Shown: positions 4,104 through 62,451 of the stretch, in pieces | Layout: every line of letters begins with the position of its first letter | Position numbering within the stretch: the first letter of the stretch is position 1 | NCBI GenBank assembly: GCA_021780535.1 | Contig: JAJXYN010000009.1 | Coordinates: 5,631-69,630, forward strand | Reading direction: 5' to 3' | Source: a bacterium | Lineage (GTDB): Bacteria; Patescibacteriota; Patescibacteriia; JAGPKW01 | Length of the DNA stretch: 64,000 bases | Position numbers and translations under genes: made by a program | Notes under the pieces: model-generated | Told to the model about the DNA's origin: nothing | The model's input: the letters and a program-made list of their open reading frames with translations, nothing else | Databases searched by the model: none

Positions 4104-7100
4104 TTACGCCCCGATTCCCCTGTTATTTGATTTTTCTTTTTTATGAAAATACCTCATTACATCACCATATCTTTTTGATTCTTTATATCTCTTTATTAGA
4201 TCAATATTTTCTAGAAATTTTGTTATTTCAATATAATCAGATTTTTCTTTATAATTAACCATTGACACTATTGTTTTAAAAAATCCTTCAAAATCTTCTT
4301 TAGCCGATCTGGTATATTCTTGATCTTCTGGTAATTTTCTCGCTAATGCGAGCATCCCCCATAGTAGTCCCATTATTACATTATCTTGTTTTTTAACTAT
4401 TGGTGGAGATGCTAAAATACCAGTTGCTATAAGATTTTTATTTGTTCCATATGTTGTTATTCCTGAATCTTTGTATCTTATTTCGTCTATCCATGTCTTA
4501 CCATCTTGATTTGTCATATAGACTATTTCTACTGGTTTATCGTCTAACATCGTAAGAAATGTTTCTGATATTATTTTTCCAAAATATGAAGTATCTTCAA
4601 ACACATCTCTACTAACAAAGTCTGATTTAAAATTAGGGATTAAAGAATTTGGGCATTTTAGTTTATCAAGTCTAAGAATGTTAAAAATATTTACTTTAAA
4701 TTCTTCAAGTGTTTTAACAATACCAATTTCATCTAATCTTTTTTTCCAATGAATCATTGCTTCTGTATCAAAATACCAAAATGATGAAATACTTGACGGA
4801 CTATCTATTTTTATTTCTTGTTCAATAGTATAAGAACCTAGCGTATATGGGTTTTGTTTTTTGGTTTTAACGTCAACTAAGCTAAATAGGTTATTTATAA
4901 CATCTCCTACTAAATCACCACTTAAATCTTCTTCATAACTTATATCTTCCACTTCTTGTTTTTTTATTTCTTCTATTTTACTTAATATTTTTGGATGTAA
5001 TTTTTCTATTTGGACACCTTCTGTTACTTCCAAGCTAGCCTCATCACCTTCTATTTTTAATAACCCTTTCCCAAAAAATTTTGTTTCTTTTGAAATATAT
5101 GCCCTAAATCTATCAACCCCTATTTCGTTTATAGATATTAATCTTGGATATACATTTTTTCCATCATCAACATAACACAAAATAATATCGTCTTTTCCTT
5201 TTTCTTTTAATAAACTAGAAAAATAAAATATTTTCCCATCAATCTCTAAAGAAGAAGTTGGTTTAAGAACTTCACTAGAAGATAACAATTGAAAGGTTTG
5301 AACATTTTGCCTAAAAGATATTAAATTTTTAGAAATATCACTTAATCTTTGAAATAGAGTCTTATAATTATTATCAAAACTATATGTTGAAATTCTATCT
5401 ATACAAAATTCTGAATAATTTTTGAGAAGATTTTTATCATTTAAAAAGTCTAATTGCCCCATTGAATTGTCTAAAAACGGACCAGCTACAACCTCCTCGA
5501 CTATGTCTTTAGTTTCGCTCTCTACTACCTCTATCGTGCTCTCTTTTTTCTTAGCTACGTCTTCTTTTTTTGTTGCTTTAATTTTTTCTATTATTTCATT
5601 ATACAAAGCCTCATTAATAATACTTTTTTTATCAATTTTAATAAGCATTCCTCTTATTTTTATAATTCCATTTGCTTTTAGCTTATCCATAAATTCTTTA
5701 TCAAATTCTGGATATTTTTCTCCAAATAAAGAAATAAAAAATACCTTACCATCTCCTGTGTAATTTATATATCCATCAAATCCGTTACAAATTAATAAAT
5801 CTGTCAAACTTTTAGTAAAAGGAGTATTTTTTTGTACAAAAATCTTCCCAAAATTATCTGAATTAATTATGTTTTCTGGCTTAATTTTATATTTTTCAAA
5901 TTGTTTTATTAATTCATTATGTTCAATAAATAATTGAATCTTTCTACTTTTGCTAATTAACCAACCTAAACCAGTTCTTTTTTCTAATTCTAATTGAATG
6001 TCTCTAGCATTTAATCCAGATTGTTTTAGTTTTAATTTTTCTTCAAAATATACTTCTTCTAATCTAATAATATAATCTGGAAATATTACATCTCTTCCTT
6101 CTAATTCTGTTTCAAATTGTTTCTTATACTGTAAAATTAGATCATTATCTGTAATATTTATTAATCCAATTTCTATCAATTCTTCATCTGTTAGTTCTAT
6201 AAATTCTAAAGGTATTCTTGGATTGTTATGAAAATATTTTTCTTTAAGACTATTACAATTTAAAATTTTTTCTAAATTATTTGGATTAATAAATTTTGTA
6301 TATCCGTATAATTTTTTGTGCGATATGTTAAAATCATGGGGAGACATTTTAAAATCACCGTAATCTTCAAATTTATAATATTTATCGTCTTCTCTATTTA
6401 TGAATCTAACAATTTCTTTAATGAATGCAAAATTCTTTTTTGTTAATATATTCACTCCTTCATATTTTAATGGATTTTCTTTTTTTAATTTATCCAAATC
6501 ATTTATTAACCCCAATTTCAACATAAGAGAGAACATTTGTCTTGTAGCACAATTGCCTTTTGTTGATTCTTGACCATGATGATCTAATGTTGACATCATA
6601 TATTTTGAGTCATATCTTGGCCCAGTTGTCTTAAAAATATTTAATCCATCCATTTGAGATAAATCTGAAACTAAAACTTTTGGCAAATTTGCCAAGACGT
6701 CTTCATTTATACTACCATCTTCATTCAAATATTTTGTAAAATTATTTTTGTAAAAAATACTTCCATCATCTGTTTTATTTTCACCTTTTTCATTTATTTG
6801 TTCATAATTAAACTTTGAAAAATTTAATCCTACTATTTTACATAAAAATAAAACACCTTTTGCATCTAAATCCATTTTTTCATGGACAGCAATACCAGTG
6901 AACGCTTCTTTTATCTCATCCATAAAAGCTTTTCTTCTTTCTCTTTTTGGCAATTTTGAAATATTTTTTAAATGATCTTCATATTTTTTTCTTTCTTCTG
7001 GATCTTTTATGGTCTTTGCCTTTTGCTGAAATAAAAATATTGCAAATTCAAAAGGAGCAAATTTAGATTTAATAATTTCAAACTTCCCAAATTCTTCTTT

Positions 7101-7985
7101 TTTTTCTAACTTTTCAGACTCAATTGGAGTTTCTTTAGGAATTTCTTTATCTTTTTTTAAATCATTATCAACCACTATAGATAACGACATTAATTCTTTT
7201 TCTAGTTTATCTTTTAATTCTTTTTTTGGATTTCCAGCTAATACTACTTTTCCAATTTTTGTTTTTTTTAATTCCAATATTAAAAGATCTATCTCTTTGT
7301 CTTCAAAATCTTCTAAATTTAATTTTATAATAAAACCCGCCTTATCAATTATGCTCAAATAATTTTTTAAAAAACTAAAAATCCCTCTAGCTTCTTTTTC
7401 TTCATTGGTTTTTTTATCTTTAAACTTATATTTTTTACAAAAATAACTAAGATCAATCTTATTTAATTTTGATTCTTGTATTAATTTTATAAGTAAATTT
7501 TTTACATCTGGCCCAATATCCCTCTTTTTAGTATTTTTTATGTAATCTATAACAAAAAAATCGTCTTCTATATGTGATTTAAAAATATTTTTTCCACTAA
7601 TCTTACCATCTAGCCCATATTTCTTTATTAGATCTTCAATATTTTCTTTATTTTCTTTTATAGATTCTTCTTTTTTACTTGTATCATCCGGTATTTCTCC
7701 GTCATATTCATATATGTATCCAGAAACTTTATTTATTTTATAATTTTTTGGCTTTTCTTGAATATTATCTTTTTTTTCTTCTTGTTCAACATTAATACCA
7801 TACCTTTCTATAAAAGTATTTTTTAAATTGTCTGTCTCTATTCTATCTATTTTAGAACCTATCACTCTGCCTACAGCAGTTTCTATACCACCTGCTTTTT
7901 CTAAATCTATTGATAGTCTATCTAATTCTGACATGCCAGAATATTTTTCTTTTTTTGAATTTTTTTTAAAAAAATCTAAACCCAT
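4104..7985 (-). CDS. Giant (1293 aa) lysine/glutamate-rich soluble protein, function unknown
   Basis: Single uninterrupted ORF with no TM helices or signal peptide. No motif I can assign to a known family, only a possible cysteine-centred motif (TKGNCATRQ). Confidence 0.75.
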   Translation of the reverse strand: MGLDFFKKNSKKEKYSGMSELDRLSIDLEKAGGIETAVGRVIGSKIDRIETDNLKNTFIERYGINVEQEEKKDNIQEKPKNYKINKVSGYIYEYDGEIPDDTSKKEESIKENKENIEDLIKKYGLDGKISGKNIFKSHIEDDFFVIDYIKNTKKRDIGPDVKNLLIKLIQESKLNKIDLSYFCKKYKFKDKKTNEEKEARGIFSFLKNYLSIIDKAGFIIKLNLEDFEDKEIDLLILELKKTKIGKVVLAGNPKKELKDKLEKELMSLSIVVDNDLKKDKEIPKETPIESEKLEKKEEFGKFEIIKSKFAPFEFAIFLFQQKAKTIKDPEERKKYEDHLKNISKLPKRERRKAFMDEIKEAFTGIAVHEKMDLDAKGVLFLCKIVGLNFSKFNYEQINEKGENKTDDGSIFYKNNFTKYLNEDGSINEDVLANLPKVLVSDLSQMDGLNIFKTTGPRYDSKYMMSTLDHHGQESTKGNCATRQMFSLMLKLGLINDLDKLKKENPLKYEGVNILTKKNFAFIKEIVRFINREDDKYYKFEDYGDFKMSPHDFNISHKKLYGYTKFINPNNLEKILNCNSLKEKYFHNNPRIPLEFIELTDEELIEIGLINITDNDLILQYKKQFETELEGRDVIFPDYIIRLEEVYFEEKLKLKQSGLNARDIQLELEKRTGLGWLISKSRKIQLFIEHNELIKQFEKYKIKPENIINSDNFGKIFVQKNTPFTKSLTDLLICNGFDGYINYTGDGKVFFISLFGEKYPEFDKEFMDKLKANGIIKIRGMLIKIDKKSIINEALYNEIIEKIKATKKEDVAKKKESTIEVVESETKDIVEEVVAGPFLDNSMGQLDFLNDKNLLKNYSEFCIDRISTYSFDNNYKTLFQRLSDISKNLISFRQNVQTFQLLSSSEVLKPTSSLEIDGKIFYFSSLLKEKGKDDIILCYVDDGKNVYPRLISINEIGVDRFRAYISKETKFFGKGLLKIEGDEASLEVTEGVQIEKLHPKILSKIEEIKKQEVEDISYEEDLSGDLVGDVINNLFSLVDVKTKKQNPYTLGSYTIEQEIKIDSPSSISSFWYFDTEAMIHWKKRLDEIGIVKTLEEFKVNIFNILRLDKLKCPNSLIPNFKSDFVSRDVFEDTSYFGKIISETFLTMLDDKPVEIVYMTNQDGKTWIDEIRYKDSGITTYGTNKNLIATGILASPPIVKKQDNVIMGLLWGMLALARKLPEDQEYTRSAKEDFEGFFKTIVSMVNYKEKSDYIEITKFLENIDLIKRYKESKRYGDVMRYFHKKEKSNNRGIGA

Positions 7986-7993
7986 TTTATTTT

Positions 7994-9331
7994 TTAATCT
8001 CTTAACACTTCCAATAATTCTTTTATATTGTTTACTTCTATTATCTTATCATTTTTTTCATTTTTATTTAATTTTGTTTTGGGGATAATTATTTTTGAAA
8101 ATCCCATTTTATTTATTTCTTTTATTCTAGATTCCATACTTGGCACCGATCTTATTTCTCCAGATAATCCTATCTCTCCAAATATACATATATTGCTAGC
8201 TATTTCTTTATTTAAATAGGCAGACATAATAGCTGAACAAACTGCTAGATCTATACCTGTGTCTTTCGGATTAACACCCCCTACAACATTTATATAGATA
8301 TCAAAATTAAATAACTCCAATCCTATTTTTTTGGTAAGAACCGCAATAATAACCTCTAATCTATTCATAGAAAATCCTGAAGTTGTTCTCTTTGGATATC
8401 CAAATGCTGTTTTTGAAATAAGAGCTTGTACTTCTATTAAAAATGGCCTCGTACCTTCTTGAATACAAGTTACTATATTGCCTTTTTCTTGGTTTTCTTT
8501 ATCCATAAATATTTCCATCGGATTTAAAACTTCGGATAATCCAGTTTCTTCCATAGAAAATATTCCAACTTCATTTGTATTGCCAAATCTATTTTTTATA
8601 GATCTTAATATTCTAAAATTTTTATATTTCTGAGCTTCAAAATATAAAACAACGTCAACCATATGTTCTAACATCTTCGGCCCACCAATCCCACCATCTT
8701 TTGTTATGTGCCCTATTATTATTATTGATATATTTAATCTTTTTGAAACTTCTAAAATCTTAGATGTGCATGCTTTTATTTGATTTGTAGAGCCAAGACT
8801 ATTATCTATTTCATTTGAGTATATTGTTTGTATAGAATCTATAATGACTAGCTTTGGTAAATTTTTTTCTATTGTTGCTATTATGTTTTCAACTACAATA
8901 TCGCCAGAAAATTTAATATTATCCGATTTGCAATCAAGTCTATCTAATCTACCTTTTATTTGTTCTTTTGTTTCCTCTCCTGAAACATACAAAACAAAAT
9001 CTTCATTTATTTTTGAAGCTATTTGCATAACAAGAGTTGACTTGCCTATTCCTGGTTGACCAGCTAGTAATATAAGAGACCCGGGCACTATGCCACCTCC
9101 AAAAACTAAATCAACTTCGTTTATATTTGTTTTTATTCTTTTTAAACTAGAAGAGTTGACTGTGGATAAATCTATAAGATCGGAAACTTTACTTTTTATA
9201 TCAGTTCCTTTTTTAGACCCTGTTGGTATTTTAGAAACTTCTTCTACCTCTGACAATTCCCAATTTCCACACTCATTACATCTTCCTTGCCATTTTTTAT
9301 ATTGGTAGCCACATTTTGTACATTCAAACAT
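7994..9331 (-). CDS. radA: DNA repair protein RadA/Sms
   Basis: N-terminal C4 zinc finger (CTKCGYQYKKWQGRCNECGNW), Walker A (GQPGIGKSTL), C-terminal Lon-protease-like domain. Confidence 0.9.
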   Translation of the reverse strand: MFECTKCGYQYKKWQGRCNECGNWELSEVEEVSKIPTGSKKGTDIKSKVSDLIDLSTVNSSSLKRIKTNINEVDLVFGGGIVPGSLILLAGQPGIGKSTLVMQIASKINEDFVLYVSGEETKEQIKGRLDRLDCKSDNIKFSGDIVVENIIATIEKNLPKLVIIDSIQTIYSNEIDNSLGSTNQIKACTSKILEVSKRLNISIIIIGHITKDGGIGGPKMLEHMVDVVLYFEAQKYKNFRILRSIKNRFGNTNEVGIFSMEETGLSEVLNPMEIFMDKENQEKGNIVTCIQEGTRPFLIEVQALISKTAFGYPKRTTSGFSMNRLEVIIAVLTKKIGLELFNFDIYINVVGGVNPKDTGIDLAVCSAIMSAYLNKEIASNICIFGEIGLSGEIRSVPSMESRIKEINKMGFSKIIIPKTKLNKNEKNDKIIEVNNIKELLEVLRD

Positions 9332-15818: not shown

Positions 15819-18050
15819 ATGTCTGAAAATTTAGAAATATCAGTAAAAAGCTTTCATATCAACAGTCATGATAAAAATTCATTTGTTGATGTTTTAATAT
15901 CTTCACCTTCTCCCGTTCAAAAAAGAACTCTCGGAAAACTTGTTATAATAACGCAAATAAACTCTGAGATCCAAACAAAAAATTTAATCAATATTATAAA
16001 TGAGAATATTAGGAGTAATTATTATTCAAATATAAATGCTAATATTGAATTTTCATTAGAATCAACACTTTCTGACTTTAATAAAAAAATAAAAGAAATA
16101 GAAAAGATAGAAAAGATAAAAGATTTGAAATCTAAACTATCTACTTGCGTTATAATAATAAAAGATAACTCCGTTTATTTCACCCAACATGGCGATATTT
16201 CTAGCCTTCTACTACATAAAACTAAAATTATAAATATAGTAGAAGATAATGTAGTGGAAGATAATCCAGAAAAGATTTTTTCTAATATTATTATTGGGAA
16301 AATTACAAAAGGAAGTACATTATTATTCTCTACAAATAGTTTATTTGATTATACAGAACAAGAAAAAATATCAAATCATCTAGAAAATTCTAATATAGAA
16401 AACACAACTGAATTTATTAGAAAAAGCTTAGATGCTAAAGAAGATATTTCTTATGGGATAGGATGTGTTTTGATTGGAGAAAAAAAGATACTAGAAGAAG
16501 AGATTGCAAATGAAGATGATGACGTCTCTTACGAAGATAGAAATAATATGGAACAAAATATAATACCTCAATTAATTGGTAATATAAATAAGCCATTAGG
16601 ATTTTTTAAAGACTTCTCAAATTTTGTATCATCAAAAATGAAATCATTATCTGAAAATAAAAAATTAAATGATTTTATTAATAGCACTAAAAAAAATAGT
16701 AAAGAAGCTATAACTATAATATCAGAAAAAAGCAAAGAAAATATCAAAAAAGGTGGAGAAAGTATATCTAAAAAAATGAAAGTATTTTTCACATCAATAC
16801 CATCCACAGTTAAAACCGCTATTGAAAAAACTAAAAAAATAAATGAAGAAATAGCAAAAGAAACTCCAAAAGAAAGATTTGCAAGATATGAAAATAATAT
16901 AAAAACTTGGTACAAGGAACTTACTTTAGCTAAAAAAATAGTATTTGTTTCAATAATTGTTGTAATATTTTCATCTTTAATTACATATAGAATATGGCAA
17001 CAAAACGAAAAAGCTAAAATAGCTGAAAACGAATATCAAGATAGTCTAAATTATATAAAATCTATACAAAACGAATCCACATCTTCTTTATTATATAACA
17101 ACATACCAAAAGCTAAAGAGCTTATATCAAATGCTGAATACTTAATATCAAATTTAAAAACGGACTCTAAAACTAGACAAGAAAATAAATTAAAATTAGA
17201 AGAAGAAAATAAAAATATATTGAATAAGGTCTATAAAATAATTAACATTACAAATCCTACTGTATTATCTGATTTATCTTCAAATAATCCAGCTGTTACT
17301 GTTAATATTAATAAAATATTATTCTTTAAAAATTCTTTATATGCTTTTGATTATAAAAATAAAGGTTTTTATAATATAGACAATGCTAGTAAAAACGTAA
17401 TTAAAATCACTACTGATGCGAATCTCAATGAAATAAAAGCTATGAATATTGTATCTAGCGAAAATGGTAATATTTTATTCATAGATTCTAGTAATAATAT
17501 GTACACTTTTGATGGAACATCAATAAACAGAATAACATTAAAAGATAGTTACCAAACCGAACTAAACAAATACTCTATTAGTGATATAAACTCATATAGT
17601 CAAACATTATATCTATTAGATACTAACAAACAAGATATACTTACTATAAAAAAAGGTACAAAAGACTATGGTAATGTTTATTCTTGGCTAAAATCTTCTT
17701 GGGATTTTAAAGATGTTACATCTATGACTATAGATGGATACATATATACAGCAAAGTCTAATGGCTTAGTTGAAAAATTTTATAGAGGTTATAACAGAGC
17801 CTTTACTCTTGATGAAATAAACCCTAAATTACAAAATATTGTTAAAATATATACGGATGATAGTACTAATAATATTTATATACTAGATGCTCAGGGAAAA
17901 AGATTTGTTGTTTTTAATAAAAATACTGGCTCACTTGTTGGACAATATATATCTACAAGCTTTGATAAGTTAAAAGATTTTTATGTAGATTCAAAAGCCA
18001 ATAAAGCTTACATATTAAATGATAATAAAATTTTTGAAATATCTTTATAA
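15819..18050 (+). CDS. Hypothetical single-pass membrane protein with a C-terminal beta-propeller-like repeat region
   Basis: 743 aa. One TM helix around residue 370 (IVFVSIIVVIFSSLITYRIW). The C-terminal 350 aa has recurring Y..D / G..Y blade-like segments. Confidence 0.55.
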   Translation: MSENLEISVKSFHINSHDKNSFVDVLISSPSPVQKRTLGKLVIITQINSEIQTKNLINIINENIRSNYYSNINANIEFSLESTLSDFNKKIKEIEKIEKIKDLKSKLSTCVIIIKDNSVYFTQHGDISSLLLHKTKIINIVEDNVVEDNPEKIFSNIIIGKITKGSTLLFSTNSLFDYTEQEKISNHLENSNIENTTEFIRKSLDAKEDISYGIGCVLIGEKKILEEEIANEDDDVSYEDRNNMEQNIIPQLIGNINKPLGFFKDFSNFVSSKMKSLSENKKLNDFINSTKKNSKEAITIISEKSKENIKKGGESISKKMKVFFTSIPSTVKTAIEKTKKINEEIAKETPKERFARYENNIKTWYKELTLAKKIVFVSIIVVIFSSLITYRIWQQNEKAKIAENEYQDSLNYIKSIQNESTSSLLYNNIPKAKELISNAEYLISNLKTDSKTRQENKLKLEEENKNILNKVYKIINITNPTVLSDLSSNNPAVTVNINKILFFKNSLYAFDYKNKGFYNIDNASKNVIKITTDANLNEIKAMNIVSSENGNILFIDSSNNMYTFDGTSINRITLKDSYQTELNKYSISDINSYSQTLYLLDTNKQDILTIKKGTKDYGNVYSWLKSSWDFKDVTSMTIDGYIYTAKSNGLVEKFYRGYNRAFTLDEINPKLQNIVKIYTDDSTNNIYILDAQGKRFVVFNKNTGSLVGQYISTSFDKLKDFYVDSKANKAYILNDNKIFEISL

Positions 18051-18663: not shown

Positions 18664-20946
18664 TTACCGTTCCATAAATATCTTAACATCACCGATATCT
18701 TTATTTGATTTAAAAATCTTTAAAAGATTCACATATTTTTGATGTATTTCTATAAAATTTATCTTATCCCAATACGCACTTCTAATATAATCATCCTTTA
18801 ATAATAAAAAACATTTGCTAGCCCCTGTTATTTCTTTAGCCTTCTCTAATACGTCTTTACTTGGGGTTTTTATCATACTATTAAATACATCCACTCTTTC
18901 TTTTTGAGAAAATTCCAAGCCTTGTGGAAAGCCACCAGTAACTATTCTGCCACCACTTTCATATTCCATAGCTAAAAGTGGCCACGTATTCCCTATTATA
19001 CAGAATTTTTTATCATTTTTTATTTGTGAAAACAACCATTTTGCAGCTTTAAAATCATTTTCTGTAGCATTTTGCATAATCGGACCAGAAAATAAAGTTG
19101 ATACCGAGAATAAAGAATAAAATAAAACAATGGAAATAATTAAAATATTGTAATATTTAGATGTTGAGAAATTGAGAGATTTTTCTTCTACTTTTTCTAT
19201 CAAAAACAATATTCCATATGCAAAAAATAAAAGCAGTAATATTGATATAAATATTTCTATTCTCTTAGCAAATATTCTTACCCCACTAAAACATAAAAAT
19301 GATATTAAATAACTTAAAAACAATGATAAAAATGAAAATACTACAAATCTATATTTATCTTGTTTTTTATAAAAATATATTATCCCTATTATCACAATTA
19401 ATATAAAAATTATAGAAAAAAGAGGAGCAAAACTCACAATCCAAGGGACATTTAATTTATCAGTATCAAATATTGTTTTGAAATAAATAAAATTTCTAGA
19501 AGATTCATATATATTACTTGAATAATTTGATAAAGAAAATAAATTACTAAAAAATATACCTATTTTTTGAAAAAAATCTAACAAACTTTGCTTTATTAAA
19601 AAACTTTGCGCTGATACTATATCCAATATTAATATTGGCAATGACAATATTGGTATAAATAAAAATTTAAACTTAGTATTAATTTTATTAAATAAAATAT
19701 AAAAACTAACAAATATTATAAAAATAATAAGAAAAACTATATAATTAAAGTATAAAAGTAAAAAACAAAAAGTAAAAAACAAAAGAAAAGATTTTAACGA
19801 GAAATCATTATTTTTTATTTTATTAAAAAATAAAGTTATTATAAACAAAAATAGCAATAAACCAAAACCTCTTGGATCACCTTGGGATCCCTCTATTAAT
19901 AACGGGCTCAACAAAAGAGAACTCAAAGAAAAAAGAAGAATAAGATTTTCTTTATTTGTAAAATTTTTAAATATATTAATAAAAAATATTGGCACAAATA
20001 TTGACCAAAAAATAAAGACAAAATATTTATCTACAAATAAAACATCCTTATTTATAATCCAAGAAATAAAAATATCTGACGCCCATTTATTACCATAACT
20101 TTGCTTATTACCTACTACCAAAACTTCTGGAATAACCAAACCACCAATATTTTTCATTGTTACATTTTCTTTCGTACCAAAAAGTGATGGAGTTATTATA
20201 TTCCCTTGTTGTAAAGACTTTTCTATCCCAGCATGTCTTAATCTATCCCCACCAAAGCCAGATTTATATAAAACAGGGAGAGTTGAGTGGAATATAAAAG
20301 ATGTGAAGATTATTAGAAGAAGTGATAGTGTAAAATATGAGAATGAACGAGAAGGAATGAGAAGGGTTGAATTTTTGCTATTTTCTTCTGATTTAAATTT
20401 AAATATATAAATTAAAACAAAACTTATCAAGGCTACAAACAATAGCCATAATAACGGGAATGTTTTACTGAATTGATATATATTATAATCACCAGAACGT
20501 GCTTGAAAAAGATAGAATAAAATCAAAAGACTAAAACTGAAAAAACCAAAAACCAAAACTGAAAAATTTATATTAAAATATGGAAATATTGAAACATTCA
20601 AAAGCTTTTTTATGTTTGAATATTTTAATGTTTCAGTTTTTATTTTTATGAAAAATAATGGCAGTAATGTTGTTAATATTAGTGAAGTTATAAAAAATAT
20701 CGGGGTTATTTTATATAAGACTATAAATATTGAACCATAAAAACATAATAGATAAAAAGATATAAAAATACCTAACAAATAAGAAAATGTTAAGTTTTTA
20801 AAATACTTGTTTAATAATTCTCTATAAGAGTATCCCGTTATCAATAACCACAAAATTAAAACAATTACACCTATATATGTATTTTTTAAAAAGAATGTAT
20901 TTAGAATTAGCAAAATCAATGAAATTGCATTTAATATTATTATCAT
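18664..20946 (-). CDS. Large polytopic membrane protein (about 16 or more TM helices) with a C-terminal soluble domain; putative glycosyltransferase/polysaccharide polymerase-like
   Basis: 760 aa, very hydrophobic with many predicted TM segments and a 170-aa hydrophilic C-terminus. Lies near polysaccharide genes. No diagnostic motif recognised. Confidence 0.5.
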   Translation of the reverse strand: MIIILNAISLILLILNTFFLKNTYIGVIVLILWLLITGYSYRELLNKYFKNLTFSYLLGIFISFYLLCFYGSIFIVLYKITPIFFITSLILTTLLPLFFIKIKTETLKYSNIKKLLNVSIFPYFNINFSVLVFGFFSFSLLILFYLFQARSGDYNIYQFSKTFPLLWLLFVALISFVLIYIFKFKSEENSKNSTLLIPSRSFSYFTLSLLLIIFTSFIFHSTLPVLYKSGFGGDRLRHAGIEKSLQQGNIITPSLFGTKENVTMKNIGGLVIPEVLVVGNKQSYGNKWASDIFISWIINKDVLFVDKYFVFIFWSIFVPIFFINIFKNFTNKENLILLFSLSSLLLSPLLIEGSQGDPRGFGLLLFLFIITLFFNKIKNNDFSLKSFLLFFTFCFLLLYFNYIVFLIIFIIFVSFYILFNKINTKFKFLFIPILSLPILILDIVSAQSFLIKQSLLDFFQKIGIFFSNLFSLSNYSSNIYESSRNFIYFKTIFDTDKLNVPWIVSFAPLFSIIFILIVIIGIIYFYKKQDKYRFVVFSFLSLFLSYLISFLCFSGVRIFAKRIEIFISILLLLFFAYGILFLIEKVEEKSLNFSTSKYYNILIISIVLFYSLFSVSTLFSGPIMQNATENDFKAAKWLFSQIKNDKKFCIIGNTWPLLAMEYESGGRIVTGGFPQGLEFSQKERVDVFNSMIKTPSKDVLEKAKEITGASKCFLLLKDDYIRSAYWDKINFIEIHQKYVNLLKIFKSNKDIGDVKIFMER

Positions 20947-27182: not shown

Positions 27183-27216
27183 AAAGTAAATAAAAACAGG
27201 GCCCGTTTGGACCCTC
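27183..27216 (-). terminator. Rho-independent terminator for the 27225..28067 gene
   Basis: Minus sense: AGGGUCC-aaac-GGGCCCU, a 7-bp stem with one G-U, then GUUUUUAUUUAC. A second small hairpin CUUUGAG/CUCAAAG overlaps the stop codon. Confidence 0.55.
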
Positions 27217-27224
27217 TTTGAGGT

Positions 27225-28067
27225 TTAACTCTCAAAGTATCTATAAACTAGTGCTTTAGTTCTATGAAGCATATTACTCGCTAGCAGAATGCTTTTTCTC
27301 CTGCTTAGAAAATTGAACTTTGGGTTATATTCTATTATTATAGTTAGTTTACTTTCCCCATATATTCCTTCTTCGAAATTTATTTTCATGATCTGCAACA
27401 GGTGTCTGAATATTTGTATTTCTCTCAGACTCGCCCAATCATAATTTTCATGAACCGAATCAATATTGGTGGTTTTTCTAATAAACTCGTCAATATCAAT
27501 TACTGGCTGAAAATGAATCACTGGAGCAAAATTGCGTCTTAATTCATACACAACATCTTCTGCTTTCACTTGCTCCAACTTTTCATAATCGATCAAATGC
27601 CTTGTGTCTGCAACTAAAATTTGCCTACTTTCACAAGCATCTTTCAATACTTCTAGCGATACAACTGACAAGTTTGGAGAAATTTCGACAAGAGTATTTT
27701 CATACTCATCTTGTACTAAATCAATGAATTCGTGTGATATATGAGTTATTCTTCTTCTTGTGTGATTATCTACAACCATTTGTGCTGCTTTTTCTTTTTT
27801 GAAGAGCAAAAATAATTGCAGAATATCATCAAAAGCCCTACTTGCATCTATTTGCCAAAAATGTTGAAGTTCCGGTCTCCACACATCCTCATAACAAATT
27901 GTATCTTCCTCTAGCCCTGTTATTCCATTTTTCAATGGTAGGGCTTGGAAACCGTCGTATCCAACTCTTTTAGCGTCTTTTCTTGTATCATTAGCAGATC
28001 TCCCAATTTGCATGATGGAAATGTCACTAACGCCATATTCTATGGTTGTTTCCATGTTGCCCTCCAT
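27225..28067 (-). CDS. Hypothetical protein in a GC-elevated island; possibly a xylose-isomerase-like TIM-barrel (sugar phosphate isomerase/epimerase) family member
   Basis: 280 aa, GC about 35-43% against about 25% background. AKRVGYDGFQALPL resembles the (A)KELGFDGVEL start of AP-endonuclease-2/xylose isomerase-like TIM barrels. The second ATG (28055, METT...) has a GGAGGG SD and may be the real start. Family call is low confidence. Confidence 0.5.
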   Translation of the reverse strand: MEGNMETTIEYGVSDISIMQIGRSANDTRKDAKRVGYDGFQALPLKNGITGLEEDTICYEDVWRPELQHFWQIDASRAFDDILQLFLLFKKEKAAQMVVDNHTRRRITHISHEFIDLVQDEYENTLVEISPNLSVVSLEVLKDACESRQILVADTRHLIDYEKLEQVKAEDVVYELRRNFAPVIHFQPVIDIDEFIRKTTNIDSVHENYDWASLREIQIFRHLLQIMKINFEEGIYGESKLTIIIEYNPKFNFLSRRKSILLASNMLHRTKALVYRYFES

Positions 28068-28174
28068 TTGTTTGTAATTTTAAAATAACACATTATTTAT
28101 AAAAAATCAATTATTAAATTGACTTTTATAACTTTTTGTTTTATTATATAAAAAATATTTGAGGAGGTATTTTT

Positions 28175-28762
28175 GTGAAAACTGACATCCTGCTAGTAAT
28201 TTCAAGGTGAGTCTTACCAATTGATATTATTGATAGGCACACGAAAAAAAATTGTACTGCGGCACTTGCCTTTGCAATTCAAAAATATAAATCAGAAAAC
28301 AAGTTCTCATTCTTTACTGTTGGTGGTGTTTTTCAGCCAGACAATATACAAAAAACAGCAATTGCAATTCTTATGAAAAGATTTTTAGAAAGTTGTTGTT
28401 TTGCAACAGCTCGACATTATAAAACTATATTTGAGAACCAATCTCTTGATACATGGCAAAATATTGAAAATTTTAAGAAAATTATTTTGGAAAATAAAAT
28501 TGATGTTGGTAATATATATGTTTTTGCTGATAGCTTTCACTCAATAAGAGTTTCATTGTTATTAAAATATCATGGATTTATAAATATTTTTAAAACACAC
28601 TCTTATATCAAACTTGACCTAAGGGAAAAAATAAAGGAAATCATTCTCATTGTTATGACCTTTATTGATCCTTCTGGCACTAAAAACCCCATTATTAAAC
28701 GGGTACTTGAAAAAGAGAGAAAACTTAGATCTTCTGGCAATACTTATCTTAAATATTCTTAG
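28175..28762 (+). pseudogene. DUF218 (YdcF/SanA/ElyC-like) gene interrupted by a single in-frame TGA 11 codons after a GTG start that has a strong SD
   Basis: GAGGAGG (28161-28167) sits 7 nt upstream of GTG 28175. The frame reads VKTDILLVISR-TGA(28208)-VLPIDIIDRHTKK...FTVGGVF...VFADSFHS... and continues without other stops to 28762. The ORF track only reports the internal-Met fragment 28373..28762. DUF218-like features: ILLV..(G) core and SGG-like TVGG. Confidence 0.5.
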
Positions 28763-28765
28763 GAA

Positions 28766-28800
28766 CAAAAAAGCGACCATAAGGTCGCAATTTTTATTTT
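28766..28800. terminator. Bidirectional rho-independent terminator between the DUF218 gene (+) and the flavodoxin gene (-)
   Basis: AAAAAA-GCGACC-ataa-GGTCGC-AATTTTTATTTT. A-run and T-run on either side. Confidence 0.6.
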
Positions 28801-30145: not shown

Positions 30146-30221
30146 GCCATTATAGCTCAGTTGGTAGAGCGTCTCCCTCGTAAAGAGAAGGTCAAGAGTT
30201 CGATTCTCTTTAATGGCTCCA
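30146..30221 (+). tRNA. tRNA-Thr (anticodon CGU) with genomically encoded CCA
   Basis: Manual fold: acceptor GCCATTA/TAATGGC, D-arm GCTC/GAGC, anticodon stem TCTCC/AGAGA with one 31-39 mismatch, loop CTCGTAA (U33, anticodon CGT, A37), 5-nt variable loop, T-arm AAGAG-TTCGATT-CTCTT, discriminator T, then CCA. Confidence 0.85.
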
Positions 30222-30227
30222 AAAATT

Positions 30228-30253
30228 AAAAATCCAGCTTTTACTGGATTTTT
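30228..30253. terminator. Bidirectional terminator between tRNA-Thr (+) and lysS (-)
   Basis: AAAAATCCAG-ctttta-CTGGATTTTT, a perfect 10-bp stem with A/T runs on both sides. Confidence 0.6.
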
Positions 30254-30256
30254 AAT

Positions 30257-39744: not shown

Positions 39745-40068
39745 CTATTTTTGTGCTGTTATTGGTTCTTTATAAAAAATATCTTCTCTACCTTTTTCTA
39801 TTTTTGTACTGAAATTATAATCTTTAAATTTTGAAAATAGATTTGATTTTAATATTTTATCATCTATTCCATAATCTTTGAAATCTTGCTTAGACAATTC
39901 AACTTCTTTTTTTATAAACGAATCTATTTCTAAATCTCTAGATGCTATTTTTATTGTAGATTGTATTGTTGATGATAAATAAAATATTGCTATCAAAAAT
40001 ACTGATAGTATTGAGATTATTATTAATTTTGAATATATTTTTTTCATCATATGTTCTTGTAGTAGCAA
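39745..40068 (-). CDS. Small TM protein in the pilus cluster
   Basis: 107 aa with an N-terminal TM. Overlaps the pilO-like gene end. Confidence 0.4.
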   Translation of the reverse strand: MLLQEHMMKKIYSKLIIISILSVFLIAIFYLSSTIQSTIKIASRDLEIDSFIKKEVELSKQDFKDYGIDDKILKSNLFSKFKDYNFSTKIEKGREDIFYKEPITAQK

Positions 40069-40643
40069 GTAATATTGAACGTATATTTATTAAAATCATT
40101 AGTAACGTAAAAATTATTTATATTAAACAATCTTACATTTGATTCTATTTCTGACATAAAATTTTTAAATGTTTTATAATCTTTTCCGTTTTTTACATTT
40201 ACAGAAAAATTTATTTTTTTAAGCTTATTATTTATATTATTACTATCAGTTGAGGTTTCGTCTGTTTTTTCTTCTTCAAAAATTATTTTTTCTATATCAA
40301 CTCCCGTATTTTTTGATATTTGCCCTATTTCATTTATAATACTAGCCATATCTGGGCTATATGGTAGTATTTTTTTTATTTTTTCTAAATTTTTATTATC
40401 AATAAGATTAAAATCGTATTCATACTCTTTTAATTTTTTAAGATGATTTATTTTTAATTCTGAGTATTGATTTTCAAGACTTAGTGCTGTATCTATTTCA
40501 ACTTTCATACTTTCATAATTTGGCATTATTAAATATAAAAAACCTGAAACAAATATTAATGGTAATAAAAGCAATACTATTAAATAAAAATAATTTTTTA
40601 ATATATAATCAATATTTATTTTCTTAAATAATTTATTATTCAT
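40047..40643 (-). CDS. pilO: PilO-like inner-membrane pilus assembly protein
   Basis: N-terminal TM, coiled coil, C-terminal alpha/beta domain. Position after the pilN-like gene. Confidence 0.45.
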   Translation of the reverse strand: MNNKLFKKINIDYILKNYFYLIVLLLLPLIFVSGFLYLIMPNYESMKVEIDTALSLENQYSELKINHLKKLKEYEYDFNLIDNKNLEKIKKILPYSPDMASIINEIGQISKNTGVDIEKIIFEEEKTDETSTDSNNINNKLKKINFSVNVKNGKDYKTFKNFMSEIESNVRLFNINNFYVTNDFNKYTFNITCYYKNI

Positions 40644-49365: not shown

Positions 49366-50526
49366 TTAATCACCTTCCTCCGTATTATTATCCTCATTTC
49401 TATGTGAATCTTTATTGTTATTATTATCATTATTAACATTATCTAGACTTTGAACATTATTATCCTGACTCTGTTGATTGTTTTTTATTTCTTGTTGTTG
49501 CGCTTGCACGTTATCTGTATTTGTTTCTTGTTTTTTATTTTGTGCATTTTCTTGTGTCTTGTCTGTATTTTTTATTGTAGTAGAATTGTCGTTTTGATTA
49601 TTACTTTCTCCATTGTCTTGCTTGTTTGTTTTTTTAGTATCTTCTGACTTTATATCTTCTGGCTTTACATCTTCTTTTTTAACATTTTCTTGTTTATTAA
49701 TATTTTCATTTTTTATATCTTCTTGTTTTTTATCAATATTTTGTTTTTCTGGACTATTATTTTCTACATTACTATCAATATTTTCTTGTTTATTGTCTGG
49801 ATTATTTTCAATATTTTTATCTGAATTTATTGTGTTGTTATTTTCTGTAATACTAGGCTCTATCTGATCTATAACTTTCAATGTTTCTTTTAGAATATCT
49901 TGATTAATCTTTTTATCTCCACTTAAAATCTTTTTTTCTTCTTTTATTTTATTAAATACTTCTTTTTGTATTGTTTTTTTTGTTTCAAATATTTTTGTAG
50001 CTTCTTTTTTTTGTTCTATATTTGTTATATTTACTATTTCTTTTTGTATTTTATTATTTATTTTTGATATTTCTAATATTGTATTTGCTATTGCAGAATT
50101 GTATTTTGTCGTATTATCGTCTGCATATGCCACATTTATCAAAGAAAATTGTTGATCTATCTTATTAAAATTTTTTGATTTTAAATATTCTATTTCTGCT
50201 ACTCTTTTGTCTAATAATACAGAATAATATTTTACTTTTGACAAACCTGTTTTTGTTCCAGAGATAAAATTTTCTAAACCTGTTTTTACTCCATAAAGAG
50301 CACTCCCATATACTACTGAACTTGAATTATATGAATATGCAGTAACTGATGTTAATGTAAAAATCAAAGCAAAACTAACCATGGCTGGCTTTAAAATATA
50401 ATTTAATTTAAAAATATTCAAATGCTTAAAATACAATCTAAATAATATCCTAAGACTTCTTATTGGACTTAGATTTTTTTTTGATATTTTATTTAATTTT
50501 TCTATTAACTCAATTTCTTGTTTCAT
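49366..50526 (-). CDS. Putative anti-sigma factor: single-TM protein with a long Asn/Gln/Lys/Glu-rich low-complexity tail
   Basis: Overlaps the end of the ECF sigma gene by 17 nt. TM helix (AMVSFALIFTLTSVTAYSY). The C-terminal 150 aa is extreme low complexity (N, Q, K, E, D). Confidence 0.45.
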   Translation of the reverse strand: MKQEIELIEKLNKISKKNLSPIRSLRILFRLYFKHLNIFKLNYILKPAMVSFALIFTLTSVTAYSYNSSSVVYGSALYGVKTGLENFISGTKTGLSKVKYYSVLLDKRVAEIEYLKSKNFNKIDQQFSLINVAYADDNTTKYNSAIANTILEISKINNKIQKEIVNITNIEQKKEATKIFETKKTIQKEVFNKIKEEKKILSGDKKINQDILKETLKVIDQIEPSITENNNTINSDKNIENNPDNKQENIDSNVENNSPEKQNIDKKQEDIKNENINKQENVKKEDVKPEDIKSEDTKKTNKQDNGESNNQNDNSTTIKNTDKTQENAQNKKQETNTDNVQAQQQEIKNNQQSQDNNVQSLDNVNNDNNNNKDSHRNEDNNTEEGD

Positions 50527-51043
50527 TTTTATTGTTAATAATTTCTTTCAATTTTGTTAATGCTCTAGATATTCCAGTTCTTATTGATGTTTTGTTTTTC
50601 CCTAATATTGCTTCCATCTCTTCATAATCTAGATCATCAAAAAATTTTAAAGCTATTAAATATTGATCTGTTTTGTTTAATTCTTTTATGCTTTTTTTTA
50701 TGTCTTCTGATCTTATTTTAGAGTCTATTAAATTATTTAGAAATTCTTTATTGTCTGCTATTGTTATTTTACTATCTATAGCTTCTTCTAAATCATCTAT
50801 TATTAATAACTCTTTATTTTTTCTGAAATAGTCAATTAAATGATTGTGCGCTATTCTATATATCCACACTTTAAGATTACCCTCATTTTCTAAGGAATCT
50901 ATTTTTTCTATTACTTTTTCAAAGATGTCTTCTGTTAAATCTTCTGATAATTCTTTATCAAAATTTGTTCTGAATAAAAAATAATTAAATATTTTATCTT
51001 TGAATGTATTATATATTTCTGTAAATTTAGAGAAATCAGACAT
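50510..51043 (-). CDS. ECF-type sigma-70 family RNA polymerase sigma factor
   Basis: Region 2 (VWIYRIAHNHLIDYFRK) and region 4 HTH (DLDYEEMEAILGKNKTSIRTGISRALTKLK). Confidence 0.8.
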   Translation of the reverse strand: MSDFSKFTEIYNTFKDKIFNYFLFRTNFDKELSEDLTEDIFEKVIEKIDSLENEGNLKVWIYRIAHNHLIDYFRKNKELLIIDDLEEAIDSKITIADNKEFLNNLIDSKIRSEDIKKSIKELNKTDQYLIALKFFDDLDYEEMEAILGKNKTSIRTGISRALTKLKEIINNKNETRN

Positions 51044-51309: not shown

Positions 51310-52524
51310 ATGAGTAAAAAATTACCTGTCATATTATCATCTATGGCATTATTGGCTTCAACAACTTCTGTCCCATTTGTATTTGCTAGTACAAACTATA
51401 CTGATGGCTCATACTCTGCAGATGGATCATACAATAGCCCAAAAGGACTTGAAAACGTTAATTTATCAGTAAAATTATTAAGCAATAAAATAACTGATGC
51501 AACTTTTACAGCAAATGCTAGCAATGGAACAAGTCAATACTATGATGATTTGTTTATAAAAGGATTTAAAGATCAAGTTGTTGGTAAAAATATTGATGAG
51601 GTTAACTTAAGTGTTGTAAATGGTGCATCTCTAACACCAATTGGCTTTAATGATGCTTTATCAAAAATAAAACAACAAGCTTTAGTTGGAGGAGCTACTA
51701 CTACAAGCACAACAAGCACTAATACCTCTAATACGTCCACAGCCACTACAGTAGATACTAGTACTAACACTAGCACTAATACTAATACCGATATAAATAA
51801 AGAAGGAGAAGATGGCTCTGATAGTGAGGATAATAATAATAGAGAGAGTAATAGAGAAAGTGAGAAAAAACAAAAAGAGAGTAATAGAGAAAGTGAGAAA
51901 AAACAAAAAGAGAGTGACAAAGAGAATTTAAAACAAGAACAAGAACAAGAACAAAATAATGAACAAGAACAACAAGATAATGAAGATAAAAATATTACAT
52001 CTCAATTAAATAGTGTAAATAATTTTGATTATATTAAATCTATAAAAATACAAAACAATGATATTAATAAATATAGTGATGTTGTTACAGTATTGAATAG
52101 TTTTAAAGATGCTTTGACAAAAATAAAAGATGCTGCAAATGTACAAGCTACTGATACATCTACACTAACAGACACCGAAAAAGCTTTATTAAATAAATTA
52201 GTATCTCAAAATAAAAACAATTTTGATACTACAAGTAAAAACATAGATGAATTAAATTCTTATATTGACCAATATGTAACATTATTAACACCACTTGCTG
52301 ATGCTAATATATCAAAATATATAAAAGGATTTTTAATTTCTGAATTAAATAATATAAAAGATTCTATAAAATCTGAACAAGATTTGGTTAAAGAAGCTAT
52401 AAATTCTGTAATTTATACACCTATACCTTCTCCAGTAATCACAACTCCAACTAGTACAACAACTCCAACTAGTACAGCAACTCCAACTAGTACAGCAACT
52501 CCAACTAGTACAGCAACTAATTAA
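51310..52524 (+). CDS. Secreted protein with an N-terminal FMN-binding (FMN_bind)-like domain and Ser/Thr-rich and charged tandem-repeat regions
   Basis: Signal peptide. DGSYSADGSY…VNLSVKLLSNKITDATF…VVNGASLTPIGFNDALSKIKQQAL matches the DGxYxG…GKI…V.GAT.T..A FMN_bind pattern. Then T/S-rich linker, RESNRESEKKQKES x2 and TPTSTA x4 repeats. Confidence 0.5.
   Translation: MSKKLPVILSSMALLASTTSVPFVFASTNYTDGSYSADGSYNSPKGLENVNLSVKLLSNKITDATFTANASNGTSQYYDDLFIKGFKDQVVGKNIDEVNLSVVNGASLTPIGFNDALSKIKQQALVGGATTTSTTSTNTSNTSTATTVDTSTNTSTNTNTDINKEGEDGSDSEDNNNRESNRESEKKQKESNRESEKKQKESDKENLKQEQEQEQNNEQEQQDNEDKNITSQLNSVNNFDYIKSIKIQNNDINKYSDVVTVLNSFKDALTKIKDAANVQATDTSTLTDTEKALLNKLVSQNKNNFDTTSKNIDELNSYIDQYVTLLTPLADANISKYIKGFLISELNNIKDSIKSEQDLVKEAINSVIYTPIPSPVITTPTSTTTPTSTATPTSTATPTSTATN
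51843..51915 (+). repeat. 36-bp tandem duplication inside the surface-protein gene (encodes ESNRESEKKQKE x2)
   Basis: gagagtaatagagaaagtgagaaaaaacaaaaa appears twice in tandem. An 18-bp x4 array (actccaactagtacagca) also lies at 52444..52518. Confidence 0.7.
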
Positions 52525-60801: not shown

Positions 60802-62451
60802 ATGAGCTTAACAAGAAACCAACAACTTACATTAGAATTATATAATAATCTAAACAACATAAGTACTGTTGAGGATTTTGTATTAGCAAAAAAAAAGATT
60901 TTTGGCCAAGACAAAATAGACCCCCCATCTAATTCTGACACACTAAAAATATATAATGAATTATTGGATTTAAAAATTATTAGCTCTAATGATAAATTTG
61001 AAAAATTTTGTAAAAAACATAAAGTTAGAACTCTTTCTGGTGTTTCTGTTATTGCTATTTTAACAGAAGAAAGACCTTGTCCTGGAAATTGTGCGTTTTG
61101 CCCGACCGAACCAGATATGCCGAAAAGCTATCTTTCTAATGAGCCAGCCGTAATGAGAGCTATAAAATGTAATTTTGATGCTTATGCCCAAATTAGAGCA
61201 AGATTGCATGCTCTTAAAATTAATGGCCATGATACTTCCAAAAATGAAATTATTATAATGGGCGGAACGTGGTCATATCTTGAACATGAATATCAAGAAA
61301 GATTTATTTTAGGAATGTTCCAAGGGTTAAATGAAGGAATAAGAATGGATGATAACAACCTTCTGCCAATAAGAATGGATGAGAAATTAATTAAAAAAAT
61401 AAAACTAGAACAGCAAAAAAATGAAATTAGTGATAATAGATGTGTTGGGCTAACTCTTGAAACTAGACCTGATTATATAGATGAAAGAGAATTAATAAGA
61501 ATGAGAGAATTTGGATGCACAAGAATTGAAATAGGTGTCCAGACAATATTTGATGATATTGCTATATTAAATAAAAGAGGTCATTTGGTTGATAAAACAA
61601 TAAAAGCAACAAAATTAATGAAAGATGCTGGGTTTAAAATCTGTTATCACATGATGCCAAATTTGCCAGGTTCAACAATAGAAAAAGATATAAAAATGTT
61701 TGATGAATTATATAATAATTCTGATTTTAAACCTGATATGGTAAAAATCTATCCTTGTGTTGTTGTAAAAAATGCTGAGATATATAAATGGATGCTTGAT
61801 GGCACTTATACACCATATACAGATCAGGAATTGTCTGACTTATTAATTGAAGTAAAAAAAATAACACCTTATTGGGTTAGAATTAATAGACTAATAAGAG
61901 ATATACCGTCAACTTCAATAGAGGGTGGAAACAAAATACCAAATCTTAGAGAAGTTGTTCTTAGAAAAATGCAAAAATCTGGATTAAAATGTAACTGCAT
62001 AAGATGTAGAGAAATTAGAGATAAGGACTTTGATATTGATGATGTAGATTTATTTATAGAAGAATATAAAGCAAGTGATGGAATAGAATACTTTTTAAGC
62101 TTTGAAGATAAATCTAGAAATAATATATTTTCATTTTTAAGATTAAGGATTCCCTCTCAATACTTTTCCCACGAAAAACACTTTATAAAAGAATTAGAAA
62201 ATGCAGCGATTATAAGAGAAATTCATACATATGGAGAAGTCGTTTCTATAAATGATAAAAATAAAAAAGAAGATACTCAACATATTGGTTTTGGAAGAAA
62301 ATTAATTTCTGCAGCTTTTGAAATAATTAAAGAAAAATATCCTTCAATAAAAAATATTGCTGTTATTTCTGGTGTTGGTGTTCGTAGCTATTATAAAAAG
62401 AATGGATTTGAACTTGTTGGAACTTATATGATAAAAAAAATAGAAAATTAA
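60802..62451 (+). CDS. elp3: Elp3-family radical SAM plus GNAT acetyltransferase (tRNA U34 modification enzyme homologue)
   Basis: Radical-SAM Cys cluster (RPCPGNCAFCP), central TIM-like region, C-terminal GNAT with HIGFGRKLISAAFEI. 549 aa. Confidence 0.8.
   Translation: MSLTRNQQLTLELYNNLNNISTVEDFVLAKKKIFGQDKIDPPSNSDTLKIYNELLDLKIISSNDKFEKFCKKHKVRTLSGVSVIAILTEERPCPGNCAFCPTEPDMPKSYLSNEPAVMRAIKCNFDAYAQIRARLHALKINGHDTSKNEIIIMGGTWSYLEHEYQERFILGMFQGLNEGIRMDDNNLLPIRMDEKLIKKIKLEQQKNEISDNRCVGLTLETRPDYIDERELIRMREFGCTRIEIGVQTIFDDIAILNKRGHLVDKTIKATKLMKDAGFKICYHMMPNLPGSTIEKDIKMFDELYNNSDFKPDMVKIYPCVVVKNAEIYKWMLDGTYTPYTDQELSDLLIEVKKITPYWVRINRLIRDIPSTSIEGGNKIPNLREVVLRKMQKSGLKCNCIRCREIRDKDFDIDDVDLFIEEYKASDGIEYFLSFEDKSRNNIFSFLRLRIPSQYFSHEKHFIKELENAAIIREIHTYGEVVSINDKNKKEDTQHIGFGRKLISAAFEIIKEKYPSIKNIAVISGVGVRSYYKKNGFELVGTYMIKKIEN

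Follow-up and report, generated by a model that had tools for sequence, protein, structure and literature searches.

A single in-frame TGA in a native DUF218 gene of an AT-rich bacterial genome marks a probable young pseudogene

In the 64-kb stretch of DNA analysed here (the window) a DUF218 gene is interrupted at codon 12 by an in-frame TGA, and it is very likely that a recent nonsense mutation inactivated a native gene and left a young pseudogene. We propose that a native chromosomal DUF218 gene, 195 codons long and equipped with a promoter and terminator of its own, a strong Shine-Dalgarno (SD) sequence and a GTG start, suffered one G-to-T transversion that changed the codon for Gly-12, most simply GGA, to TGA. 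Ribosomes would then begin at the GTG at 28175 and stop once 11 codons had been read. Met67, the following canonical start in this frame, lacks an SD, and a product begun there would be without the GG loop and two of the core strands of the probable Rossmann-like fold. We infer that function was lost and that translation does not proceed past the TGA. As a counter-point, the promoter, SD, start codon and downstream conserved residues are intact and the gene is free of SNPs among the four assemblies that carry it, which would also fit a gene that is still in use; however, the lack of SNPs and the intact signals are expected for a very young pseudogene. The case is one of ordinary gene decay and not of an alternative genetic code.

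The promoter-like site, the SD and the reading frame of the gene lie on the plus strand. A promoter-like site of the sigma-70 type (TTGACT, a 17-nt spacer and TATTAT; 28119–28147) is the best match of the region (10/12) and probably acts as the promoter; the TTGACT..TATTAT block is kept at the orthologous loci of two related species, sp2 and sp4, and of the contigs encoding the homologues P0004 and P0005. It is followed by the SD GAGGAGG (28161–28167), a 7-nt spacer (TATTTTT) and the start codon GTG (28175–28177). Read directly from the sequence, the frame gives 11 codons, VKTDILLVISR (28175–28207), and then the TGA (opal) at 28208–28210, after which it is open for 183 sense codons and ends with TAG at 28760–28762; the rest of the frame (28211–28762) is thus intact and cut off from its start codon, and uninterrupted the gene would count 195 codons. 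A terminator search placed a bidirectional intrinsic-terminator-like hairpin, GCGACC-ATAA-GGTCGC, at 28773–28788, common to this gene and the convergent flavodoxin gene; three terminator-like sites were found against 0.3 expected from shuffles. The original prediction had described a GAGGAGG separated from GTG 28175 by 7 nt, one in-frame TGA at 28208–28210 and an open frame beyond it, all of which are seen in the sequence. It had also called this ribosome-binding site the strongest of the window, and this holds, as the two strands of the 64 kb contain GAGGAGG just three times in all, and the copy at 28161 alone stands before a start codon. A survey outward from SD cores found such motifs to be generally rare at gene starts of the very AT-rich window (25.3% GC), while the SD of the DUF218 gene is strong and a GGAGG-type SD precedes the start of every DUF218 ortholog.

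The interrupted frame matches the Pfam family DUF218 (PF02698), scoring 35.5 bits where the gathering score is 27.6 (E = 1.1e-8), over positions 17–109 of the 133-position profile, and the read-through translation and the part after the TGA both score above the gathering score, in line with the DUF218/YdcF-like similarity noticed originally. A word-indexed search of 5.8 billion protein clusters (90% identity) returned two matches, the 129-aa ORF of the window itself (P0001) and an intact 191-aa ortholog from sp2 (P0002), for both of which the precomputed domain match is PF02698. P0002 is 53% identical to the read-through query over 99% of the query, and this full-length identity to an intact protein speaks against a chance origin of the long reading frame beyond the TGA. 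Its N-terminus is MGTNIALVLSRGVTPVD as against VKTDILLVISR*VLPID in the window, where VKTDILLVISR aligns with MGTNIALVLSR. Searched exhaustively with HMMER, 1.84 billion representatives (50% identity) yielded only 69 relatives at E <= 1e-3; this DUF218 subfamily is small and very divergent. An alignment of 30 of the 69 relatives has a conserved N-terminal ILLVP strand, and the near-invariant residues of the family are all found in the window frame (G50, G51, Q59, E87, S90, T93, N96, H122, R125, E155, D165, G168 and R182), as are the family motifs, i.e., the GG loop after beta-2, E..S.DT.(E/Q)N and H..R.

An AlphaFold model of P0002 (pLDDT 96.9, pTM 0.92) has a beta-alpha-beta topology, with beta-1 formed by residues 3–8, Gly12 in the loop after beta-1, and Met66/67 in the middle of helix alpha-2. 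When the model was compared with the PDB by Foldseek only weak matches were obtained, the best by TMq being YdcF (3CA8; 0.50, E = 8e-3). The E. coli YdcF structure is also the only significant PDB sequence match (profile E = 9e-4) and the nearest solved relative. According to the homologue alignment and the model, the GTG start and the first 11 codons of the window gene correspond to strand beta-1, and the TGA stands in place of a conserved Gly in the beta-1/alpha-1 loop. The original prediction had left room for the first 11 codons to lie outside the conserved protein; they belong to it, as they align with the ortholog and with the ILLVP strand of the homologues. Since the N-terminal strand is conserved and helix alpha-2 contains Met67, the real gene extends across the TGA.

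No in-frame ATG, GTG or TTG occurs between the TGA at 28208–28210 and the ATG at 28373, and for this reason ORF finders report only the 129-aa ORF from Met67 (28373–28762, plus strand; P0001). It is very unlikely that this ORF is a real and functional, shortened DUF218 protein. Gene callers have annotated it (P0001, 6 contigs) and a protein of a third related species, sp3 (P0006), is likewise called from an internal Met, but there is no SD core upstream of Met67 while GTG 28175 has the strongest SD of the window. The product would further be predicted to lack beta-1, alpha-1, beta-2 and the near-invariant G50, G51 and Q59, and Met67 is the natural start in none of the 69 homologues except the nonsense-interrupted sp3 copy. 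Codons 1–66 have 48% protein identity to the ortholog (hand count on the alignment), which argues that they were coding until recently. The 129-aa ORF is more readily seen as a truncated remnant without SD, and the public DUF218 annotation of P0001 should be that of a pseudogene of the 195-codon gene. A restart just after the TGA was also considered and rejected: the stop overlaps with an SD-like AGGTGA, but the TTG at 28221, which is the sole canonical start close enough, is out of frame, and the ATT at 28220 that is in frame is non-canonical.

The TGA is not confined to one assembly. The window shares its AGG-TGA-GTC with three other assemblies, GCA_021833805.1 (NCBI MAG), ERZ27236874 (ENA) and SRR13178628 (Logan assembly of an SRA run), and the TGA is the same in contigs L001, L002 and L003. 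Each of the three further assemblies differs from the window by 3–4 SNPs, three of them common to all three assemblies and one private to each; none of the SNPs among the four assemblies lies inside the DUF218 gene. An intact 195-aa allele was found neither among the 5.8 billion 90%-identity clusters nor among the 50%-identity representatives, and the stop appears to be fixed in the sampled population. Because the same TGA is found on different SNP backgrounds in four assemblies, an assembly error is unlikely. It is conceivable that the four assemblies stem from related samples, from one study or from short-read data, and that the true codon is a sense codon, e.g., GGA; even so, repetition of the same substitution error in four differing consensus sequences is improbable and the site lies outside any homopolymer or low-complexity run, and we consider a sequencing or assembly error highly improbable. 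The original prediction had joined a very recent nonsense mutation and an assembly error in one option, of which the former is supported and the latter is unlikely, given the same TGA in four assemblies.

The DUF218 gene belongs to a conserved neighbourhood. The order GT4-GT2-DUF218-flavodoxin-GT2...LysRS-pilin is the same in sp2 (L004–L010), sp3 (L011–L013) and sp4 (L036), and in the window and sp2, whose contigs come from different samples, the neighbourhood reads GT4, GT2, DUF218, flavodoxin, GT2, tRNA-Thr, LysRS and pilin. The promoter block and the SD of the window align with those of sp2, and similar TTGACT and GGAGG elements are found before the other orthologs. The GC content of the DUF218 gene is 0.289; that of the sp2 gene is 0.292, and the genes of the window average 0.264 (sd 0.041). 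Synteny in three related species, the conserved promoter and SD and the host-like GC content all argue that the DUF218 gene is native and not cargo of an island. The foreign GC content that the original prediction had ascribed to an island does not extend to it, as the GC-anomalous piece is the adjoining ORF of 280 aa (GC 0.348). An insertion of about 920 bp that contains this ORF is absent from sp2 (L004) and sp3 (L011) and ends upstream of the DUF218 promoter, and the notion that the DUF218 gene is part of a foreign island was rejected since the insertion stops before this conserved promoter.

The 280-aa ORF itself (27225–28067, minus strand; GC about +2 sd) has no Pfam match. Together with its own terminator it makes up the block of about 920 bp, about 27199–28119, between the GT2 gene and the DUF218 promoter. 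It has only six unnamed relatives, the five non-self ones at 28–52% identity. In sp4 a 281-aa ORF of 43% identity (L036 2537–3382) occupies the slot of the window ORF, so that the slot is variable and not the site of a one-off import. Contigs L001–L003 all start inside the 280-aa ORF (at 27876 or 27882), a hint that strains may differ at this place. The surroundings of tRNA-Thr vary as well. In sp2 (L004 8020–9926) the region directly 3' of tRNA-Thr(CGT) contains three additional small ORFs of 118, 166 and 211 aa, none with a Pfam match, which look like a tRNA-adjacent islet; in the window tRNA-Thr (30146–30221) is followed at once by LysRS (30222–30256 compared).

No DUF218 ortholog was found in the GTDB representative genomes, and a metagenome scan added only one further sp2 contig. 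The lineage is poorly sampled; the LysRS of the closest GTDB representative, L017 (CAZHKK010000003.1; GC 0.225), is 74% identical and all others are at most 41% identical.

At the column of the TGA all five close homologues have Gly, encoded by GGC in sp2 and sp4, GGA in sp3 and GGT in P0004 and P0005; P0002 reads LVLSRGVTPVD where the window has LLVISR*VLPID. In the 30-sequence alignment the close relatives that cover the column have Gly (SRGV or SHGV), and among the distant ones Gly is the residue seen most often. None of the five close homologues has a TGA at codon 12 or anywhere else in the gene. The original prediction had proposed to ask whether homologues carry Gly at this position, and they do; the answer is however non-discriminating, as the commonest Gly codon here, GGA, is one G-to-T transversion away from TGA, and Gly in the homologues therefore does not favour recoding. 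The two closest relatives, sp2 and sp4, use GGC and not GGA, from which the path to TGA takes two steps; the ancestral codon for Gly-12 was most simply GGA, as far as can be judged from these sequences.

The genetic code of the host was surveyed in 60 ORFs of the window that are 100 aa or longer and do not overlap one another, 18,055 codons in all. They contain no in-frame TGA, as against 998 off-frame TGAs in the same genes, and their 870 Gly codons are all GGN (GGA 329, GGT 320, GGG 136, GGC 85). Stop codons are TAA in 50 genes, TAG in eight and TGA in two, and were TGA read as sense no other real gene of the window would be altered beyond a few codons. One of the two genes terminated by TGA encodes an ECF-type sigma factor, which ends within four residues of the ends of all its homologues, and the other is a PilO-like gene. 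The host thus does not decode TGA as sense. That it uses TGA as a stop, as stated in the original prediction, is confirmed by these two genes and by the 18,055 codons, and further in-frame TGAs, which the prediction had suggested looking for, are absent from the 60 genes. The tRNAs of the window are tRNA-Thr(CGT) and tRNA-Ser(TGA) only, and no release-factor gene or motif was found within it.

Some further features of the window genes may be recorded. The PilO-like gene (40047–40643, minus strand) ends with a tandem TGA-TGA and overlaps the start of the next gene by 22 nt. For the ECF-type sigma factor gene (50510–51043, minus strand) at least three paralogous factors are recorded, P0077, P0078 and P0086 (74% and 52% identical to the window copy), all with a longest contig of 413,881 bp, which suggests one source contig. 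A full-length bacterial Elp3-type radical-SAM/GNAT tRNA-modification enzyme is encoded at 60802–62451 (plus strand; TIGR01211, E = 6.5e-168). Four large ORFs have no NCBIfam match at E <= 1e-5, namely 4104–7985 (minus strand, 1293 aa), 15819–18050 (plus, 743 aa), 18664–20946 (minus, 760 aa) and 51310–52524 (plus, 404 aa).

Taken together these observations bear on the reading of UGA as Gly, whether because the gene came from a code-25 donor (Gracilibacteria/Absconditabacteria) or because the host is beginning to reassign UGA. Such recoding would agree with the Gly that all close homologues have at the aligned position and with the near absence of TGA as a stop (2/60). It is contradicted by the syntenic ortholog, the conserved promoter and SD and the host-like GC content, by the GC-anomalous insertion that stops upstream of the DUF218 promoter, and by homologues that use TGA neither for this Gly nor anywhere in the gene. 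Sense TGA would be expected to spread under the AT pressure of a genome of 25% GC, yet none of the 870 host Gly codons is TGA. Two genes do terminate at TGA, the sigma factor near the ends of its homologues and the PilO-like gene with TGA-TGA, and a TGA brought in from a donor would in any case act as a stop in a code-11 host. Recoding is in our view exceedingly unlikely, and the code-25 donor entertained originally fails on synteny, on GC content, on the GGN codons of the homologues and on the complete lack of in-frame TGA among the 60 host genes. The case also carries a caution, as Gly in homologues at an in-frame UGA does not indicate code 25 in AT-rich genomes.

UGA is the leakiest stop codon in bacteria, and readthrough by a near-cognate tRNA or through weak RF2 activity might still yield full-length DUF218 protein, possibly keeping its expression low. 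The intact expression signals and conserved residues, the rarity of TGA as a terminator (2/60 genes) and the lack of SNPs in the gene across four assemblies are in keeping with a leaky or programmed UGA. On the other hand the TGA is absent from the five orthologs, which all have GGN, and near-cognate insertion would normally give Trp and not the conserved Gly. The predicted fold of the 101 nt starting at 28200 is no more stable than those of shuffled sequences (z = -0.43; 60 of 200 at least as good), and the only Rfam families in the window are two tRNAs. The sp3 gene is interrupted elsewhere in the frame, by a TAA in place of another, near-invariant residue, and this resembles decay and not a common mechanism. 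We therefore regard readthrough as improbable. Programmed readthrough, the last option of the original prediction, is thus not borne out, since the TGA is not conserved, no downstream structure is found and no Rfam family matches, whereas its remark that no SECIS-like hairpin was obvious agrees with the shuffle-like folding of 28200–28300.

Inactivation by a recent nonsense mutation also agrees with the rates at which the locus has evolved. Between the window and sp2 the flanking proteins are 78–87% identical (dN 0.07–0.14), compared with 53% for DUF218 (dN 0.39, dN/dS 0.25), and the gene is fast-evolving, yet was under purifying selection over most of the divergence of window and sp2. The distance to the outgroup P0004 is 0.99 for the window and 1.08 for sp2, and that to P0005 is 1.16 and 1.28, respectively. 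A single lesion, intact signals and no excess of substitutions on the window branch together point to a recent inactivation. A long-standing pseudogene was considered and is rejected by this relative-rate test and by the single lesion; the original statement that this is not an eroded pseudogene was right insofar as it is a young one.

Related species carry damage in the same gene. The DUF218 gene of sp3 (L011 4812–5411; also L012 and L013) has a single in-frame TAA at codon 56 (L011 4977–4979) and gene calling gives two ORFs there, one of 55 and one of 136 aa. This stop replaces a near-invariant Gln (KDI*TIP as against the consensus IQT.P), most simply by a change of CAA to TAA, and recurs unchanged in three assemblies, of which two are distinguished elsewhere by long-read-type indels. 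As a TAA it cannot be a case of Gly recoding. The neighbouring genes of sp3 are 58–69% identical to those of the window and those of sp4 76–88%. In sp4 the DUF218 protein (L036 3501–4007) is 168 aa long and ends ...LIDPKGKKFK, without the last ~23 codons (the C-terminal helix and basic tail with a near-invariant Arg), and a terminator hairpin follows directly after the stop. Among the four syntenic species the gene is intact in sp2 only, and both nonsense changes, the TGA of the window and the TAA of sp3, are in the GC-to-AT direction. Because sister species have independently damaged the same gene, it appears dispensable and under relaxed constraint in this clade, and the parallel loss of a divergent DUF218 subfamily in a poorly sampled lineage of 25% GC suggests dispensability there. 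Of the sp3 contigs, L012 has an intact MiaB-like radical-SAM gene of 470 aa (6939–8351), which in L011 (6939–8353) is broken up into three ORFs; with 5 indels between these contigs over 10.4 kb, the break-up is probably due to long-read indel errors and not biology.

The repeated lesions may alternatively be due not to neutral decay but to selection for loss or modulation of a surface-glycan function (e.g., escape from phage or host recognition), or the alleles with a stop may still be expressed at a low level via readthrough. This reading draws on a strong SD kept in a genome where SDs are scarce and on the hypervariable ORF slot beside the gene in a glycosyltransferase cluster, and we give it no more than an outside chance.

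Compared with known systems, the in-frame UGA of the window resembles code 25 of the Gracilibacteria/Absconditabacteria only in that it stands where homologues have Gly. In code-25 genomes UGA serves as a Gly codon throughout genes, whereas in the window TGA accounts for 0 of 870 Gly codons and terminates two genes, and the orthologs use GGN. With selenocysteine insertion and programmed UGA readthrough it shares a UGA inside a conserved ORF; it differs in the absence of a SECIS-like hairpin and of any Rfam match beyond the two tRNAs of the window, in the homologous residue, which is Gly and not Cys or Sec, and in the lack of conservation of the UGA. The window gene agrees with the YdcF-SanA-ElyC family in its match to PF02698 and in its GG loop, E..S.DT.(E/Q)N and H..R motifs, and its Rossmann-like alpha/beta likeness to YdcF (3CA8) is a weak structural match (TM-score 0.50); it stands apart as a short, very divergent protein with a single domain of ~190 aa and a basic C-terminal helix, interrupted by a stop. 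The characterised DUF218 proteins ElyC and SanA have roles in envelope and peptidoglycan-precursor metabolism (PMC3879167, PMC12176290), and the position of the window gene among glycosyltransferase genes fits these reported roles and is, by context, consistent with an envelope-glycan role. A parallel is found in the nonsense pseudogenes of reductive, AT-biased genomes, which likewise have a single GC-to-AT stop in an otherwise intact and syntenic gene with its signals remaining. Nothing essential sets the window copy apart from them; it is very young, with one lesion and no acceleration in rate.
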